Source: a virus (lineage: Duplodnaviria; Heunggongvirae; Uroviricota; Caudoviricetes). From it: a stretch of DNA of 64,000 nt. The stretch lies in the IMG/VR virus record IMGVR_UViG_3300025000_000063, positions 64,001 to 128,000 of that record, one strand, 5' to 3'. A program made the position numbers and the translations under genes. Positions 18,968-62,780 of this stretch are shown here, piece by piece. Under the pieces are notes generated by a model. It ran no database searches. It was not told the origin of the DNA and saw only the letters and a program-made list of their open reading frames with translations. Every line of letters begins with the position of its first letter. The stretch's first letter is position 1.

Positions 18968-19792
18968 ATGGGAAAGAAAAGTAAAGAAAAAGCACCGCAG
19001 ATTGACCCGAAAAAGCTGCGAAAAGCTGCGGATGAGCTCCAGGGCCTGCTTGACCTGGAAGATGATGATGGAAACCCTGTTGAACTGAATAAAGGGTCCA
19101 TTGAGGAAATCTGTGACAAAGTGACAGAGGCCGCCGCAGAACTCACTGAAGACGATGAAATTTCTGAAAACTTGGCAGAGGTGCTTGAAATCCTGGGGGT
19201 TGAAATCCCGGAAGCAGAAGATGCAGATGATGATGCAGATGATGATGCAGATGATGATGCAGATGATGATGCAGATGATGATGCAGATGATGATGCAGAT
19301 GATGATGCAGATGATGATGCAGATGATGATGGTCCGGAACTGTCCCTGGCCGACCAGGTAAAAGCAGCAAAGAAGCTTGACGACATGAAAATCCTGGTGA
19401 ACAACAATGATGAATTCAAAAAACTGCGCAAAGGCCTCAGTGATTATAAAGGTCTTGCCGGCCCACGTGAATTGAAAGCCAAAATGCTGAAAATCCTCGG
19501 AATTGACCCGGCTGAAAAACCTGCAAAAGGCCCGAAAAAAGAAGCTGGAAAATCCAGATACGGCCGGTTGCTTTCTTCTGCTGTTGGTGTGATTGATGAA
19601 TTGCTCTTCAAAGGTACCACAGAAGAAGACATCCTCAAAACACTCACTGAAAAATTTCCCGGAAAGGATGTGAAACAACTCACTGCCAGGCTGCATGGCC
19701 ATATGAAGCAGTTGAAAAAGGAAGGGATCACAATTACCGAAAAAAACGGGAAGATCAAATCCAAAGAAGAAAAACATCCCAACATGGAATAG
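18968..19792 (+). CDS. Acidic protein with (DDDA)n tract and C-terminal domain paralogous to 8018..8701
   Basis: RBS AAGGAG; own promoter and terminator; shared domain. Confidence 0.8.
   Translation: MGKKSKEKAPQIDPKKLRKAADELQGLLDLEDDDGNPVELNKGSIEEICDKVTEAAAELTEDDEISENLAEVLEILGVEIPEAEDADDDADDDADDDADDDADDDADDDADDDADDDADDDGPELSLADQVKAAKKLDDMKILVNNNDEFKKLRKGLSDYKGLAGPRELKAKMLKILGIDPAEKPAKGPKKEAGKSRYGRLLSSAVGVIDELLFKGTTEEDILKTLTEKFPGKDVKQLTARLHGHMKQLKKEGITITEKNGKIKSKEEKHPNME
19223..19330 (+). repeat. 12-bp tandem repeat x9 (GCAGATGATGAT)
   Basis: Direct inspection. Confidence 0.95.
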
Positions 19793-19896: not shown

Positions 19897-20637
19897 ATGG
19901 GAAAACTAAAAAAGAAAAGTGACCACGCAGGAGATAACACGATAATCAAGAATGGAAAAAACTTCAGCGCCTTACTCACAAATGCAAACCTGCGTGGGTT
20001 GTTGAATGAAGTTGTCCTGACTGTAAAAAACGGGGTTGGAGAAATCCAGGCAATTGATATGACTTCCAGTGTATTCCTTTCTTGCACTGAAGACCTTGGT
20101 ATAACAGAGGACCTCACTATTGGGCTAAACAATTTACCCGGCCTGATTAAATTCTTTGAAAACAGCGAAGAAGTCCAGTACCGGTTTGAAGATGACTGGA
20201 TTATCCTCAAAAAACACAAAGCCCAATTGAAATGTATTCTATCTCCTCCTGAATCTGTCCCAACCAGCATCACAGAAAAGCTTAAATTTTCTGACCTCAA
20301 AAAACAATGCAGTAACTCCATCGACTTCACCAAAAAGATGTACGACGAATTTACGTACTATTCTTCCATAGTCAGCCCTACCAGCATTTTTATTGTTTCC
20401 GAAAAGAAGAAAACAATGCTGCACAGCAATGAATACGATGAGCAGCAATTTAAACTGTTTTTAGGTAAAGCGGAAACTGATGAAACATGCAAAACGGAAA
20501 TCCTGACAGAACATTTTTTGAAAATCCTTGGCATCCTAGACTGGAGTGAAAAAGTAACAATGTTCTTTGGCACTGACGTCCCAACGGTCATAAAACAAAA
20601 AGAAAACTTTTGGTCACTGGTGCCACTCAAAAGTTAA
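19897..20637 (+). CDS. Sliding clamp (PCNA/gp45-like, two-domain subunit)
   Basis: ~246 aa; EIQAIDMTSSVFL resembles PCNA lqAmD; C-terminal VTMFFGTDVPTVIKQ...LVPL; a loader is encoded nearby. Confidence 0.6.
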   Translation: MGKLKKKSDHAGDNTIIKNGKNFSALLTNANLRGLLNEVVLTVKNGVGEIQAIDMTSSVFLSCTEDLGITEDLTIGLNNLPGLIKFFENSEEVQYRFEDDWIILKKHKAQLKCILSPPESVPTSITEKLKFSDLKKQCSNSIDFTKKMYDEFTYYSSIVSPTSIFIVSEKKKTMLHSNEYDEQQFKLFLGKAETDETCKTEILTEHFLKILGILDWSEKVTMFFGTDVPTVIKQKENFWSLVPLKS

Positions 20638-20649
20638 GGAGGCACCAAA

Positions 20650-21120
20650 ATGAACATAGAAGAATTCTTGCCAATTAAGAGTAGGGTGCTTTCAAAAATG
20701 AGCAAATTTGAATTGGCAAAGAAAAAATGCACATCGAAAGAAGAATTGCGTGTCCTGGAAATGCAATACCTCCGCCCGGAAAAGTTGCAGAAAACAACAC
20801 AAGTGAACCACGCAGCATCTATTGATGACAGAATTATTGAAGTTGTTTTTGCAAATGAAGAAGACATCCAAAACTTCAAGCAGTTTTTCTCTGTAACTTC
20901 TCGCAGATCACTCGGGGTGAAGCAATCACTGTACAGGATTAATTTGCTTTTAGATTTTATCGCAGCATTGAAATCAGGGGAAATATCTTATGATTCGGAA
21001 AAACGAAAATTCAAGTACCAAACAGAGCCAGAACATGACGAAAGAAGATCAGATCGGAAACGGAATATTACCTCCACTAAACTCCGACATCTTAAAAGAA
21101 GCAAACAAATGGCTTCTTGA
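20650..21120 (+). CDS. Hypothetical protein upstream of radical SAM gene
   Basis: RBS AAGGAGG; 3' end overlaps next ORF. Confidence 0.6.
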   Translation: MNIEEFLPIKSRVLSKMSKFELAKKKCTSKEELRVLEMQYLRPEKLQKTTQVNHAASIDDRIIEVVFANEEDIQNFKQFFSVTSRRSLGVKQSLYRINLLLDFIAALKSGEISYDSEKRKFKYQTEPEHDERRSDRKRNITSTKLRHLKRSKQMAS

Positions 21121-21871
21121 GAATACAGACAGGACAGCCCACGGAACATATGGTTCCCCACGGGTGAGCAGTGAATTACCTGATTGCAGTATGCCGATGA
21201 CATTTGATCAGTATAGTTACTGTGGACTCGGCTGTTGCTATTGCACTATTGCAGGGACTCCAATTTCTGTTGTTGGTGGGAATAAACCAATTGAACATCT
21301 TATGGTAGGAGATAGTATTTACAGCAGGAACGTCGAAACAATGCAAATGGAGGTAACAGAAATAACAGCCACCATGGAAAGGACAGTGCATGAGATTTAT
21401 GAGATTGAACTTGAAAATGGGCGGAAGTTAAATATCACAGGTGAACATCCTGTTTGGGTGAATAATTCTGAATGGAAATGCGTAAAAGACTTAAAGCTAA
21501 CTGATGAAGTTGATTTTGTAGAAAAGCCGTATTTAGTTGCACGGAACCAAGAATACCAATTTAGAAAAAATGTATCAAAACGCATGAAGAAAAATAATCC
21601 AAGGTGGGTTGCTGGTGTCACAGAAAGAACATCGAAAACATTAAAAAAACGGTATGCCAGTGGTGAATTAACTCCATATTGGTTAGGAAAAGAAAAACCA
21701 GACGCAAAACATAGGATGCTGACAAACAATCCGATGAAGGACCCAACCATCAGAAGAAAGACATTGCAAAAATCAGTAAAAACATGGCTTGAAAATGGAA
21801 GAATTTCAATCGGTGAAAAAAGGTACGGAAAGCACTACGTGTGCTCGGTGAAAACTTTATTCATGAAATGA
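20990..21871 (+). CDS. Radical SAM protein N-extein fused to N-half of a split intein (intein starts at Cys, 21242)
   Basis: YGSPRVSSE..DC..PMTFDQYSYCGLGCCY|CTIAGTPI (intein block A) ...NITGEHPVWV (block B) ...KCVKDLK. Confidence 0.88.
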   Translation: MIRKNENSSTKQSQNMTKEDQIGNGILPPLNSDILKEANKWLLENTDRTAHGTYGSPRVSSELPDCSMPMTFDQYSYCGLGCCYCTIAGTPISVVGGNKPIEHLMVGDSIYSRNVETMQMEVTEITATMERTVHEIYEIELENGRKLNITGEHPVWVNNSEWKCVKDLKLTDEVDFVEKPYLVARNQEYQFRKNVSKRMKKNNPRWVAGVTERTSKTLKKRYASGELTPYWLGKEKPDAKHRMLTNNPMKDPTIRRKTLQKSVKTWLENGRISIGEKRYGKHYVCSVKTLFMK

Positions 21872-22116
21872 AAATACCAGGACCAAAAAGAGAATACACG
21901 CTTGATTTTTTCTTGCCTGATAAAAATATTGTAATAGAGTATGATGGGCACAGTAAGCATTATACAGAAAAGGGGCAAGAAAAACATCATGAACGTGATA
22001 ATTGGTTGTATCAAAAACATGGCATAATTACTGTTCGTATACATAGAGACGAAACAAAATTACCTGTCACCCAGTTTAGTAAGTTGCTTACCGAAAGGAT
22101 TGCAAAATGCGCATAA
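21841..22116 (+). mobile_element. Vsr/DUF559-like homing endonuclease domain lying between the split-intein halves (frame -1 relative to IntN)
   Basis: EYTLDFFLPDKNIVIEYDGHSKHY...HERDNWL; frame open from 21817 (KKVRKALRVLGENF). Confidence 0.75.
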
Positions 22117-23438
22117 AAAGCATTGTTATAAAAAAAGGGACTTTCAGAGTCCATAACATTGAAACGTCTAAACATAATAATTATTATGCCAATGGTGTGC
22201 TTGTGCATAATTGTTTTTCATACTTCTTTAAGAGCAACAACCCAAGCATGAAAACACATGAACTCAAACAAGTGAATGTAAAAAGGTTGTTGAAAAAAAT
22301 GAATGGTGAATCACCGCAAGATGTAATGTACCGGCATTTTTATAAAAGAAAATTCTTGTTGCATTGGGGTGGATTGGCAGATCCATTTTGTTCATTTGAA
22401 AAAACAAACGGAACCGGGCTTGAATTAATTAAAGGGCTGGGGAAATTAAATTACCCAACCCTCTTTTCATTCAAAGGACCAACAATCTTAGAAAAGAACT
22501 ACCTCAAAACATTTGAGAAATACCAAAAACAGTCAAATTTTGCTTTCCAGGCATCCATTATAACCCGTGATGATGATATGGCAAAACGGGTTGAAATTGG
22601 GGTGCCAAGCCCAACAAAAAGATTAAAAGCATTGAAAGAACTCAGTGATATGGGGTATTGGACTATCCTCAGATTACGTCCTTTTATTGTTGGAATTTCT
22701 GATGTTGGCCTTGATGAACTATTAAACGATGCCCTCGCTGCTGGTATTAACGGTGTCAGTTGCGAGTTTTTTGCCATGGATGCAAGAGCAAATATCGGAA
22801 TGAAGACCAGGTATGATTGGCTGGGCCAGTTAACCGGGATAAAAAATATGCATGAATATTACACGGTGCTCAGCCCAAAAGAACGTGGCGGGTACCGGAG
22901 GCTCAATAGGCTTGTAAAAGAGCCATATATCAAAAAGATCTATAAATTCTGCATTGAAAATAATTTGGTTTGTGGGATCAGTGACCCTGACTTTAAAGAG
23001 TTGAACACCTCTGGATCATGTTGTGCCATGCCGGATAATTTTAAAAAGAACCCGGAAATGCAAAACTGGACTACATCCCAATTGACATACCACCTGAAAG
23101 AAATCAGGAAAACATATCACAAAACAGGAAAGCTTGAAAGGCTTTATTTTGATAAAGTGTACAACAGTGGTAAAGAAACATACCTGGAAGAATGGCGTTT
23201 TGCCAATGACCACCCATGTACTGTTGGAATGTCACACGCCAGGGTCCGGAACACCAATCTAAAACAAATCACACAACGGTCCTGGAATAATTTACACAGT
23301 CCTGGAAATCCCAGGAACTATTTCCATGGGAAAGTTGTTCCGGTTGACCAGGACAGTAAGGGCAATTTAGTTTTTGAGTATGCCCCACATGATTATGAAG
23401 CACAATGGAAAAAAGAAGGTATCGATTTAACAAAATAA
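22107..23438 (+). CDS. 35-aa C-half of split intein (22107-22211) fused to radical SAM C-extein (SplB-like)
   Basis: MRIKSI...VHNIETSKHNNYYANGVLVHN|CFSY; own ATG, RBS AAGGA and upstream in-frame stop; WGGLADPF, LRLRPFI motifs. Confidence 0.88.
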   Translation: MRIKSIVIKKGTFRVHNIETSKHNNYYANGVLVHNCFSYFFKSNNPSMKTHELKQVNVKRLLKKMNGESPQDVMYRHFYKRKFLLHWGGLADPFCSFEKTNGTGLELIKGLGKLNYPTLFSFKGPTILEKNYLKTFEKYQKQSNFAFQASIITRDDDMAKRVEIGVPSPTKRLKALKELSDMGYWTILRLRPFIVGISDVGLDELLNDALAAGINGVSCEFFAMDARANIGMKTRYDWLGQLTGIKNMHEYYTVLSPKERGGYRRLNRLVKEPYIKKIYKFCIENNLVCGISDPDFKELNTSGSCCAMPDNFKKNPEMQNWTTSQLTYHLKEIRKTYHKTGKLERLYFDKVYNSGKETYLEEWRFANDHPCTVGMSHARVRNTNLKQITQRSWNNLHSPGNPRNYFHGKVVPVDQDSKGNLVFEYAPHDYEAQWKKEGIDLTK

Positions 23439-23450
23439 AACAGGTGTATT

Positions 23451-24263
23451 ATGCACATTTATATTCCCACGTACAGCAGGCCGAATAAGCAAGAGACATT
23501 AAAGCACATCCCAAATAAATTGATGGAAAAGGTTCGTTTGGTTGTGAACAAAGAAGAATACGGGGTGTATTGCGAACGTGTTTCTAAAAAAATGATCATG
23601 GTTGTGGAAAGAAAAGTAACAAACATCGGCCAAGTACGCCAGTACATTATTGAAAATAGCCTCAGTGATTTCAGTTTATTTTTTGATGATGATATGTCCT
23701 TTGGTGTACGGAAAGAAGGTAAACTTAAAAAAGCTGAAAAAATAGATGTGTACGGAATGTACAAATTATTACTTTTTTGGCTGGAAGAAGGGCTTATCCA
23801 CGTAGGGGTCAGTCAAAGATTTGGGAATAACCGGATAGCAGAAGATTACCTGGAAGTGACCCGTATGAATAATGTTTATGCGTACAACACCAAAATTGTG
23901 AATAAAGAAAAAATCAGGTTTGATAGATTGCCGATAATGGAAGATTTTGACATGACTTTGTCTTTACTTGCTGCAGGATACAAAAACCGGGTGTCGTACA
24001 AGTATTGCTGGGGACAAGGGAAGAGTGGCGATAGGGGTGGGTGTTCAACCTATCGGACGTTTGAAATGCAAAAAGAAGCTGCTATAGCATTAAGTAAACT
24101 TCACCCTGGCATCGTTAAAATAAAGGCAAAAAAAGGTAAGGAAGAATGGGGTGGTATAAATTCCCTATACCGAACAGACGTTAATATTTTGTGGAAAAAA
24201 GCTTTCAAAAACAAGGAAAGAAAAGGAAACACTGATTGGCTTTTTAGCGGGAGGAAGGAGTAA
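23451..24263 (+). CDS. GT-A fold DNA-base glycosyltransferase (TET-associated GT / beta-glucosyl-HMC-alpha-glucosyltransferase-like)
   Basis: IYIPTYSR, IGQVRQYI, FFDDD, EDFDMTL, GGCSTYRT motifs. Confidence 0.78.
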   Translation: MHIYIPTYSRPNKQETLKHIPNKLMEKVRLVVNKEEYGVYCERVSKKMIMVVERKVTNIGQVRQYIIENSLSDFSLFFDDDMSFGVRKEGKLKKAEKIDVYGMYKLLLFWLEEGLIHVGVSQRFGNNRIAEDYLEVTRMNNVYAYNTKIVNKEKIRFDRLPIMEDFDMTLSLLAAGYKNRVSYKYCWGQGKSGDRGGCSTYRTFEMQKEAAIALSKLHPGIVKIKAKKGKEEWGGINSLYRTDVNILWKKAFKNKERKGNTDWLFSGRKE

Positions 24264-61029: not shown

Positions 61030-62457
61030 TTAATCGTCCAATCCAAAAGTAGAAGGTGGTTTGGTGTACCCCGGTTCACTCATTTTTTCTGAGAGCTTAC
61101 GCTTTGCAAAAGCAATATTCTTATCAAGAGCGGGCTTCAGATACGGACGCGCCGGAGCCGGGTGAGGACCGCCATGACCGTGCTCTACCAACCACGAATT
61201 AGAAGTCAACACGCCGTTTGCAAAAAACGAATGGACCCCTTCTATAGACAAATCATAAAGCTTTGTCTGCCCTTTATCGTACCTTTTTTTTGTTAAAGAG
61301 ATAATGTGGGTGTTCTCGAAAAGATCAACATTCACAAATGTTGATATCCCGGGGTTGCAAGGGATGTAAAAAACGTTTTCAATAGGGTTAATATCTATCC
61401 CTTTAGCAGAATCCCCAACTATAAAATGTATGTGAAATATCTTAACGCCGTCTATCGCCTCTAAAATTTTTTTGTCCCGCTCGATGTCCTTTTTTTGATC
61501 CTTATGCCAGTATCCACCATCGACTTCATAAACAATGTTTTCATCTGGCAAATAAAAATCCAGAAATAAAGAGTTTACCTCATATTGAGACACGTACTTC
61601 CGGCCTCCGTCTTTTAACCAAGCTTCGACCTCTTTTTCAATCCGTGTTTGTTTCTGACCCCCCGCAAGCCTGTTAGGATGTAAACCAGGATTCTCCGATA
61701 TCATCTCAAGGCGTTTTACAGACATTCTTTTTTTAGATTCATCACTTCTTTTTGAACCTATATGCGGATTCATATCTGTAGCGTAAGCGGCATCTCGACA
61801 TTTTATCGTGCAGTACACAGACTCTTTTCTGGCCCTTATACCGTTAACACCAGAACCAAACATTTCACCGCAAAAAGCGCACTTTTTAGAACACCCAGTA
61901 CCTTTGTTTTTAGCCATTCTTTTTCTAATGAAAAGCTTATCGGTAAGAACGAGATCGCCCGCTTTTATCCATTGATTTTTACCCTCCCGAAAGACGAGCA
62001 TTTTATGGTCGTCTGTTACAGTGAGCTTGTGATGATGCTTACTGCACTTATTAACGTCGTATACGACCATATCTATCAGATCTGGCTTATCAACAGCCGG
62101 AAACGAGTGCTTGCTGACAACTGAACGATACTCACCAGTTTGAGTCAAAACTTTATCTCCGACTTTAACAGAAGATATTCCAAGGGGGCCTCTGTGCTCC
62201 GTTACAACCCTTGTATCACCTCCAAATATGCACTGCATCGCACCACGGCCGCCAGCTTTCACAATATACCCCCCACCCTCAAACTTACTCTTTTTAACCT
62301 TAATTGATTTTCTAAGGGCTCCAGTTTCATCTTTAAAAGCAACAGTCCGCTTGGCATCGACTTTGATCTGATCGCAAATCTCCTTGCACTTCTCGTCAAG
62401 ATGCTCCTCAAGCGCCTGTAAAAACTCGCTGGCGTCTATTTGAACTTTGACCGTCAT
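61030..62457 (-). CDS. HK97 gp10-like tail-completion protein containing an intein
   Basis: DETGALRKSI...AMQ|intein|SWLVEHG...PARPYLKPAL; spliced length 130 aa. Confidence 0.85.
   Translation of the reverse strand: MTVKVQIDASEFLQALEEHLDEKCKEICDQIKVDAKRTVAFKDETGALRKSIKVKKSKFEGGGYIVKAGGRGAMQCIFGGDTRVVTEHRGPLGISSVKVGDKVLTQTGEYRSVVSKHSFPAVDKPDLIDMVVYDVNKCSKHHHKLTVTDDHKMLVFREGKNQWIKAGDLVLTDKLFIRKRMAKNKGTGCSKKCAFCGEMFGSGVNGIRARKESVYCTIKCRDAAYATDMNPHIGSKRSDESKKRMSVKRLEMISENPGLHPNRLAGGQKQTRIEKEVEAWLKDGGRKYVSQYEVNSLFLDFYLPDENIVYEVDGGYWHKDQKKDIERDKKILEAIDGVKIFHIHFIVGDSAKGIDINPIENVFYIPCNPGISTFVNVDLFENTHIISLTKKRYDKGQTKLYDLSIEGVHSFFANGVLTSNSWLVEHGHGGPHPAPARPYLKPALDKNIAFAKRKLSEKMSEPGYTKPPSTFGLDD
61198..62232 (-). 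mobile_element. 345-aa cis intein with Zn-finger/NUMOD3/Vsr-like endonuclease
   Basis: C1 in CIFGGDT, LTVTDDH block B, LYDLSIEGVHSFFANGVLTSN|S; LDFYLPDENIVYEVDGGYWH. Confidence 0.9.
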
Positions 62458-62780
62458 TACAAGACCTCCGAGCAATGCAGAACCATATCCCCAGCCCTCT
62501 GATAATCTTCAACCCCGGTAATCCGGTATGTCTTTCCGCCATGCGTAACACGACATGAAGAATCAAGCCGCACGTCCCGCCTTACTCGGAGTTTAAATTC
62601 AGTCTTCATTTCAAGTTTTCCGGCTTCAATCCGTTCAGTTCCCCTCAAAGGTATATATTCAGCCCTGCACGGCGCTCCTGATAAATCTGACCATGTTTCA
62701 ACGGTTGCCCCCATGCCGTCCTGTGCAGTTGTCACAGACTGAATTTTTATACTCTGATCAAGTTTTCCTGCTCGAATCAT
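62457..62780 (-). CDS. Head closure protein (SPP1 gp16-like)
   Basis: MIRAGKLDQ.I.IQ...QDGMG...W. Confidence 0.85.
   Translation of the reverse strand: MIRAGKLDQSIKIQSVTTAQDGMGATVETWSDLSGAPCRAEYIPLRGTERIEAGKLEMKTEFKLRVRRDVRLDSSCRVTHGGKTYRITGVEDYQRAGDMVLHCSEVL

Follow-up and report, generated by a model that had tools for sequence, protein, structure and literature searches.

How can an enzyme hold an iron-sulfur (Fe-S) cluster when its gene is broken inside the very motif that binds it? The question is raised by a locus of a groundwater phage (Caudoviricetes), found in a stretch of 64,000 nucleotides (nt), hereafter the window, that covers positions 64,001 to 128,000 of a 137-kb IMG/VR virus record (IMGVR_UViG_3300025000_000063). 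Two genes of this locus, A and B, encode the two parts of an enzyme of the radical S-adenosylmethionine (SAM) superfamily that resembles spore photoproduct lyase (SPL), and the interruption lies just before the third cysteine of the CxxxCxxC motif. We consider it likely that the SPL-like radical SAM gene of this phage contains a naturally split class-1 intein that is both genuine and mobile. This reading is based on the anatomy of the genes, on breaks that are real, on their conservation among relatives, on an empty allele and on the catalytic residues. The parts of the two genes are as follows, IntN and IntC being the N- and C-terminal halves of the intein:

20990-21871, + strand: gene A, or open reading frame 1 (ORF1), frame 2
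20990-21241, + strand: N-extein, 84 codons, ending in CGLGCCY with cysteine ligands 1 and 2 of the Fe-S cluster (codon-for-codon alignment to L001:75-326, the empty allele described below)
21242-21541, + strand: IntN, ~100 residues, with Cys1 at 21242 and the block B motif T-x-x-H (ITGEHPV) (Pfam and PDB profile matches)
22093-22099, + strand: Shine-Dalgarno-like GAAAGGA, 7 nt before the IntC start codon (sequence)
22107-23438, + strand: gene B (ORF3), frame 0, with start codon ATG at 22107 and an in-frame TAA upstream at 22080
22107-22211, + strand: IntC, 35 residues (MRIKSI...VLVHN), with blocks F and G, a penultimate His and a terminal Asn (alignment A2)
22212-23438, + strand: C-extein, 408 codons and stop, from Cys 22212 (Cys+1), followed by FSYFFKSNNP (homologues)

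The anatomy of gene A agrees with a preliminary description made from the letters of the window, which had the extein end at CGLGCCY and the intein begin at Cys 21242. The extein part of ORF1 contributes 84 residues of a conserved protein, the final letters of which are FDQYSYCGLGCCY, and an alternative start of the frame is the ATG at 21035. Pfam Intein_splicing (PF14890) matches ORF1 residues 100-198 (E 3.3e-11, 43.6 bits against a cut-off of 35.8), and the IntN profile matches solved structures of a bacterial intein-like domain, or BIL (2lwy, E 3.4e-14), of NrdJ-1 (4.1e-8) and of gp41-1 (2.1e-7). Cys1 and the Thr and His of block B (C6, T71 and H74) are invariant in the alignment of six IntN sequences (A1). 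In the N-extein, the positions -3 and -2 from Cys1 are also cysteines, namely the second cluster ligand and an extra one.

Gene B was likewise found with all that had been claimed for it: a separate gene in another frame, with its own ATG and ribosome-binding site and an in-frame stop upstream, in which an IntC of 35 residues ending in VLVHN is followed by a Cys+1 at 22212 that is the third ligand. The same cysteine thus serves as third Fe-S ligand and as splice nucleophile. The IntC start overlaps the 3' end of the nuclease frame described below by 10 nt on the same strand (ATGCGCATAA). In the alignment of 14 IntC starts (A2), H34, N35 and C36 are invariant and M1 is nearly so, and the IntC profile matches the C terminus of the Spl DnaX mini-intein (E 5.1e-5) as well as NrdJ-1 and gp41-1, all of them solved structures. 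The two halves carry opposite net charges (-8 for IntN and +5 for IntC), and the ORF1 tail as a whole has a charge of +21. A scan of 20400-23600 for promoters and terminators gave results at chance level, with no + strand terminator between the halves.

Does the host gene exist without the intein? Among the homologues of the C-extein, the best (P0001, 95% identity) is encoded by a contig of a different run, L001, where positions 75-1553 form one uninterrupted frame of 492 codons and the empty site, around 315-335, reads CGLGCSYCFAYFFKSNNP / CGLGCSYCFAYFFK / YSYCGLGCSYCFAYFFKSNNPSMKTHELK. The exteins of the window (84 + 408 = 492 codons) have together exactly the length of L001:75-1550, no residue being lost or gained, and their joined junction matches CGLGC(S/C)YCF(A/S)YFFK. 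A complete CxxxCxxC motif exists only once the exteins are joined, or in L001. The DNA flanking the insertion is ~88-90% identical between the two, and the ratio of nonsynonymous to synonymous substitution rates (dN/dS) amounts to 0.088 in the N-extein and 0.026 in the C-extein, with dS between 0.46 and 0.86. On these sequence comparisons, the intein-endonuclease unit is best described as a polymorphic insertion of the kind that a homing element would produce, its host gene being apparently under strong purifying selection. None of the 111 highly conserved positions (conserved in at least 95% of the intact homologues) is changed in the window; other split alleles (13 at the third-Cys site and 6 at the first-Cys site, see below) have 0-8 changes, and intact ones 1.1 on average and 5 at most. 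On the 3' side of the insertion site, four of the first nine bases differ between the window and L001, and 30-nt bins reveal no clear gradient; we did not count this as evidence of co-conversion.

The breaks between the two halves are present in the DNA itself. The region was found in four public runs, all from one groundwater-metagenome study, and window positions 20900-23500 are identical, without a substitution or indel, to per-run contigs of all four (depths 251, 93, 18 and 14). Since four separate per-run assemblies match the window exactly, the frame breaks must be taken as real DNA; the assemblies exclude an assembly slip, while they are no independent biology and may be the source of the record. 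The stretch 22080-22116, which the preliminary description had wanted verified in reads, is among the positions that are identical in the four contigs.

Independent biology comes from relatives. The homologue set of the C-extein comprises 378 sequences at E ≤ 0.001, the best 120 of which were inspected closely; ORF1 gave 155 matches at E ≤ 1e-10, which were then inspected. At least 89 of the best 120 C-extein homologues are uninterrupted, with at least 440 residues (typically ~470-490) and the sequence CSLGCxYCFAYFFKSNNP at the site. Thirteen of the same 120 start exactly at the Met of IntC, with M(K/R)I-x-SIKK...NNYFANG-x-LVHN followed by CFAYFFK. Six lineages could be followed at the DNA level (L002, L004/L005, L006/L007, L012, L013 and L014), and in these the N-extein, IntN, basic repeats and a DUF559-like nuclease form a single gene of ~300-420 residues. 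The gene for IntC and C-extein overlaps the upstream stop by 1 nt (TAATG), 4 nt (ATGA/GTGA) or 10 nt (ATGCGnnTAA), and in all nine loci compared IntC starts at ATG or GTG with a purine-rich leader 6-11 nt upstream. L006 has the same 10-nt overlap as the window, its endonuclease ending in ERIAQCV where that of the window ends in ERIAKCA, and the C-gene product of L006/L007 (P0119) is present on 19 contigs. These relatives are ~57-63% identical to the window in their C-exteins and only 36-45% in IntN; because the two-gene layout has been kept at such divergence, it must be old and maintained. The search of metagenomes for the same insertion site, which the preliminary description had called for, thus recovered at least six diverged loci with the same break before IntC. 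Together with the four identical contigs, they uphold its claim of a naturally split intein, rather than an assembly artefact, before the third cysteine of CxxxCxxC. No relative of gene B was found in a scan of a viral contig collection, and tblastn gave no match of the host enzyme in the 50,697 GenBank phage records that were searched.

What lies between the two halves? The 3' part of gene A and the frame that follows it are occupied by a homing endonuclease in two pieces:

21542-21820, + strand: basic linker with two RM-x-x-NNP repeats, in frame with IntN (alignment with relatives)
21816-21821, no strand assigned: A6 run, one base short of the frame kept in all relatives, separating the ORF1 linker from the ORF2 nuclease (alignment, four contigs)
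21821-21871, + strand: out-of-frame tail of ORF1, 16 codons and a TGA stop (alignment with relatives)
21817-22116, + strand: DUF559/Vsr-like PD-(D/E)xK nuclease domain, frame 1, ending in ERIAKCA with TAA at 22114-22116 (Pfam)

The linker aligns to the corresponding region of the genes in which L002, L006, L012 and L014 fuse IntN to the endonuclease, and in which the repeat occurs 1-4 times; it is the N-terminal, presumably DNA-binding part of the endonuclease. We dropped the label NUMOD for the basic repeats, which no Pfam family, NUMOD included, matches even at E 10. The nuclease frame matches Pfam DUF559 (PF04480; E 1.4e-4, 22.1 bits against a cut-off of 20.6) and phrog_559, annotated as "HNH endonuclease" (E 1.1e-9). 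A profile search with the domain gave weak matches to the PvuRts1I nuclease and to 3hrl, and a single-sequence search of the PDB nothing usable. This frame opens inside ORF1, which it overlaps by 55 nt, and has no convincing start codon of its own. Read with a -1 slip at the A run, GEKKVRKALRVLGENF can be aligned gap-free to GEIKVRESLSRLGVDF of L002 and further relatives; likewise, with a -1 step across the junction of ORF1 and the nuclease, NGRISIGEKKVRKALRVLGENF matches NGRISEGEIKVRESLSRLGVDF of L002 and others without a gap. One extra A would restore the endonuclease frame, and the run is A6 in all four per-run contigs. A programmed -1 frameshift at this run was considered and rejected: no stimulatory RNA structure was found downstream, the fold being no better than that of shuffled sequences (z -0.31), and we take the shift as a deletion. 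The middle frame is therefore the detached 3' part of the endonuclease that continues from ORF1. All residues invariant in nine relatives (Y27, D30, F31, E41, Y42, D43, H45, H48 and others, in window numbering; alignment A3) are kept in the window, hence the lesion should be recent, or bypassed at a low level. IntN is upstream of the lesion and unaffected by it. The earlier picture of a free-standing endonuclease gene between the halves thus needs correction, the nuclease being fused in frame to IntN in the relatives. Three of the four runs also contain a further contig, unrelated to the first (19.7 kb at depth 65, X1; 4.4 and 3.9 kb, X2 and X3), that shares with the window only pieces of 18 and 24 nt (21553-21570 and 21678-21701), both in the region of the basic repeats. 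This probably reflects a related endonuclease in another element of the same community.

How could the two genes give one enzyme? Gene A would produce the 84-residue N-extein, IntN and the basic front part of the homing endonuclease. Gene B, starting 10 nt before the stop of the nuclease frame, would produce the 35-residue IntC and the 408-residue C-extein, and because of this position of its start it is probably translationally coupled. The acidic IntN and the basic IntC would associate into one Hint fold, the thioester at Cys1 would be passed to Cys+1, the terminal Asn would cyclize, and the exteins would be joined into an enzyme of 492 residues. Only this ligated product would have the contiguous CGLGCCYC able to hold a [4Fe-4S] cluster; since the third ligand is made on a separate polypeptide from the first two, the canonical cluster presumably cannot form before ligation. 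The endonuclease would ancestrally have been fused in frame to IntN, and the loss of one A from an A7 run would then have separated its nuclease domain, which most likely is no longer made, or arises only through infrequent slippage. Homing nucleases usually decay in this way once their site is occupied. We infer trans-splicing from the anatomy, its conservation and a host gene kept under selection.

Other explanations deserve to be weighed against a split intein. The most trivial is that sequencing or assembly errors broke the frame of a contiguous intein twice. Each break would need a single-base change only, and the first falls in a homopolymer (A6, 21816-21821), but four per-run assemblies with depths of up to 251 agree base for base, and other samples contain at least six independent and diverged loci with the same break before IntC, each with a start codon and leader. 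Furthermore, assembly does not break inteins in general, since a contiguous intein with the same type of nuclease was assembled intact, in one frame, elsewhere in the same genome (see below). We thus regard error as having a negligible probability. It is also very improbable that a single cis-splicing precursor arises by programmed -1 frameshifting, once at the A run and once where the endonuclease and IntC frames overlap, so that the split would be only apparent. This idea gains from the constant relative frame of the N gene and the IntC gene (an offset of +1 in all third-Cys-site loci), from the ability of A AAA AAG-like runs to slip and from the gap-free alignment to relatives obtained with a -1 slip at the A run. 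Yet the overlaps differ among loci (TAATG, ATGA/GTGA, ATGCGnnTAA) and have no slippery motif in common, a start codon with a Shine-Dalgarno-like leader is conserved exactly at the start of IntC, the sequence downstream of the A run is unstructured, and the relatives need no shift at that run, which makes it specific to the lineage of the window.

The pieces could instead belong to a dead gene, inactivated by the insertion of the intein and its endonuclease and now decaying. The endonuclease is already frameshifted, and the enzyme family is an accessory one, this module being different in many related phages. A decaying gene is nevertheless hard to reconcile with extein dN/dS values of 0.026-0.088 and unchanged conserved positions (0 of 111), with intein catalytic residues that are all intact and with a two-gene layout that persists at the divergence described above (~57-63% identity in C-exteins, 36-45% in IntN), and we find it unlikely in the extreme, if a shade less so than recoding. 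The intein fragments might also bring the halves together non-covalently, no splicing being involved. Phage Aeh1 has an endonuclease-split NrdA that reportedly assembles through interaction domains (work attributed to Crona et al. in 2011). Such functional genes-in-pieces without splicing are a precedent, also discussed by Dassa et al. 2009 (PMC2677866). In the present family, though, every residue of the splicing chemistry is invariant, and the third cysteine has to follow the second at a distance of two residues within one loop, which makes a Hint domain of ~135 residues between them implausible. We give non-covalent assembly as little chance as recoding. A natural split intein in the radical SAM gene accordingly stays our preferred explanation, and some observations count against it. 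Block F of IntC has an Asn where many inteins have an Asp. IntN bears a highly basic C-terminal tail of 109 residues (~190 in relatives), and such a tail, absent from characterized natural split inteins, could slow or hinder assembly. The purifying selection seen against L001 could largely predate the arrival of the intein. Finally, the four confirming assemblies share their study with the window and may be its source.

Which enzyme is interrupted? About half of the best 120 C-extein homologues carry the radical SAM domain PF04055; the homologue P0003 scores above the cut-off (32.4 against 29.5 bits) and L001 below it. A profile search found no relative of the host enzyme among PDB sequences, so a fold search was needed. 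The predicted fold of the uninterrupted allele (predicted local distance difference test score, pLDDT, 87; predicted template-modelling score, pTM, 0.88) has SPL as its best Foldseek match (E ~1e-5, target template-modelling score 0.62-0.63). As modelled, the host is predicted to be an SPL-like radical SAM barrel with a C-terminal extension. It shares with SplB (PDB 4FHC and related structures), an enzyme that acts on DNA, the CxxxCxxC radical SAM core, and differs from it in being only 13-14% identical, in ~150 extra C-terminal residues and in its neighbors. The scores against the NCBIfam equivalogs PA0069 and Rv2578c (45.5 and 33.6 bits, with cut-offs of 360 and 430) make it a distant relative only.

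The neighboring genes give an indication of function. The gene directly downstream (23451-24263, + strand) encodes a TET-associated glycosyltransferase (TAGT; Pfam TAGT, E 6.6e-14) and is followed by UDG and DNA polymerase A genes (Pfam UDG and DNA_pol_A_exo1), so that the radical SAM gene sits in a replication module. The same TAGT/UDG-PolA neighborhood is present in L001, L002, L004, L013, L014, L015 and the P0134 locus. A role of the host enzyme in DNA base modification is a reasonable inference from this neighborhood, which suggests such a role rather than spore repair. The SPL-like radical SAM enzyme, the TAGT glycosyltransferase and UDG-PolA probably form a phage module for DNA modification that is known from metagenomes only. 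The window and L001 diverge right after the stop codon of the radical SAM gene: L001 has at 1563-2375, between this gene and the TAGT gene, an additional N6/N4 DNA methyltransferase gene that the window does not have, a variable slot in the putative DNA-modification module. Upstream of the module, the window encodes at 18968-19792 (+ strand) an acidic protein with a long perfect (DADD)n repeat.

The relatives reveal a diversity of layouts at the same site. Before the third cysteine, N genes with an endonuclease fused to IntN form at least eight clusters at 50% identity, and short N genes with IntN only (141-173 residues) another seven. At one locus with such a short N gene, that of P0134, the gene table places a free-standing nuclease gene of 301 residues after a 48-nt spacer, a classical fractured gene. 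At another, that of P0143, the downstream gene, of 642 residues, apparently encodes endonuclease, IntC and C-extein, to judge by its length and a faint Pfam match. Contiguous inteins are found at this site in P0160 (773 residues) and P0192 (1091 residues). A second site, before the first cysteine of the motif, also has split inteins (P0026, P0032, P0096, P0105 and P0107); L008 has a free-standing TnsA-like nuclease gene there, and in P0104, by its gene table, the endonuclease is fused to IntC. The N-terminal product P0140 (541 residues) combines a contiguous mini-intein before the first cysteine with a split IntN-endonuclease before the third, placing both inteins within seven residues of host sequence. 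How these layouts are related was addressed with an IntN tree, which has 100 columns, a weak backbone and no root. Layouts are mixed in it: its well-supported branches force at least three changes for "IntN only" and four for "IntN + endonuclease", and L002 (fused) groups with P0134 (free-standing) with support of 95/88. The tree shows that layouts have switched repeatedly and gives no direction of change.

Contiguous inteins at CxxxCxx|C are also present in other metagenomic radical SAM families, namely QueE, the CXXX-repeat maturase and B12-radical-SAM proteins. In QueE (7-carboxy-7-deazaguanine synthase; P0171, P0188, P0199, P0209, P0214, P0249 and P0268), the contiguous inteins include a Vsr/DUF559-like nuclease; the three proteins inspected (P0171, P0188 and P0209) have RM-x-x-NNP repeats, and the site was CxxxCxx|C where checked. 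In the unrooted IntN tree, the QueE inteins fall among those of the SPL-like family, which hints that inteins may have jumped from one radical SAM family to another at the motif that these have in common. The phage itself carries a second, contiguous intein in a 481-residue HK97-gp10-like tail/connector protein (61030-62475, - strand). This intein follows GGRGAMQ, starts with Cys, contains a DUF559/Vsr-like nuclease and ends in VLTSN before Ser; its matches include Intein_splicing (E 1.7e-7), DUF559 (E 5.5e-4) and our endonuclease profile A3 (E 3.1e-7). Inteins are less common in virion structural genes than in replication genes.

How does the locus compare with known systems? In Dassa et al. 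2009 (PMC2677866), fractured genes are described in eight types of DNA-metabolism hosts (gp41-1/-8, NrdJ-1, NrdA-2, IMPDH-1, DnaE, ligase and terminase are named), radical SAM enzymes not being among them. Their endonucleases are free-standing GIY-YIG or Vsr-like genes that follow IntN after a spacer of 27-51 nt, with overlaps of 6-69 bp between endonuclease and IntC start in 15 loci. The present locus resembles these in that a split intein divides the gene of a phage enzyme, every part lying on the same strand, in having a Vsr-like (DUF559) endonuclease that overlaps the IntC start (by 10 nt here) and in its IntC of ~35 residues with complementary charges of IntN and IntC. It differs in its host, an SPL-like radical SAM enzyme, and in an endonuclease without a leader of its own, ancestrally fused to IntN in a two-gene layout and frameshifted in addition. 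In step IIIa of their model, the endonuclease flanks are lost and the endonuclease becomes fused into the intein. The half-fused relatives would be the intermediates that this model implies (steps II to IIIa), which the sections of the paper that were consulted do not describe as observed.

Radical SAM enzymes as such are no new context for inteins, contrary to what the preliminary description had assumed. NCBIfam NF038136 is an exception model for an intein-containing radical SAM protein of the Rv2578c family; Novikova et al. 2016 (PMC4760082) counted 48 SplB/COG1533 inteins in Actinobacteria; and the Pyrococcus abyssi MoaA intein (Callahan et al. 2011) forms, according to a review (PMC10663303), a redox-sensitive disulfide between an N-extein Cys and Cys1. 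These inteins have hosts of the same superfamily, and they are contiguous, in single polypeptides, whereas the window has two genes. With the NF038136 profile, the alignment runs without interruption over the Cys motif into the IntN of the window, and again over IntC into its C-extein, which suggests an insertion point identical or adjacent to ours, the exact residue being deduced from that alignment. The protein of the window lies far below the cut-offs of NCBIfam radical SAM models (45 against 360 and 26 against 700 bits) and is no member. No split intein in a radical SAM enzyme was found in the literature searched, most subscription journals being outside its reach; only the split form thus appears unpublished, which is not proof of novelty. 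Compared with the split inteins used as tools (Npu/Ssp DnaE, gp41-1, NrdJ-1 and IMPDH-1; Pinto et al. 2020, PMC7090010), that of the window is likewise of class 1, with Cys1, an HN end and an IntC of ~35 residues. Unlike them, it combines Cys1 with Cys+1 at a native junction CCY / CFS, and its IntN is extended by a large basic endonuclease part; its activity is a prediction, and identity to them is low.

Could the split serve the phage? The third ligand is the splice nucleophile, and the cysteines at -3 and -2 have the geometry of the redox-trapped Pyrococcus MoaA intein; for these reasons, one might see in the split intein a conditional assembly gate for the Fe-S site, by which the oxygen-labile enzyme would reach its complete form only in a reducing environment or at a late stage of infection. 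We hold this to be rather unlikely. Selfish mobility accounts for the variety of layouts, for the attached homing nuclease and for the presence/absence polymorphism, the last two of which point first to a selfish element.

Fractured genes with split inteins are, as a general phenomenon, known since 2009. The present locus adds an enzyme class to the hosts of natural split inteins, and does so at the most conserved spot of that class, with a +1 nucleophile that also serves as a metal ligand. In metagenomes, such N-halves make up at least ~20 clusters (at 50% identity), a sizeable pool of candidate Cys1/Cys+1 split inteins that are possibly orthogonal. If functional, a natural IntN with an endonuclease tail of 100-190 residues would show that a large cargo is tolerated at the split point. 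Five states are found at one site, namely empty, contiguous with endonuclease, endonuclease fused to IntN, apparently fused to IntC, and free-standing, and this series of layouts is a natural system for studying how split inteins arise.

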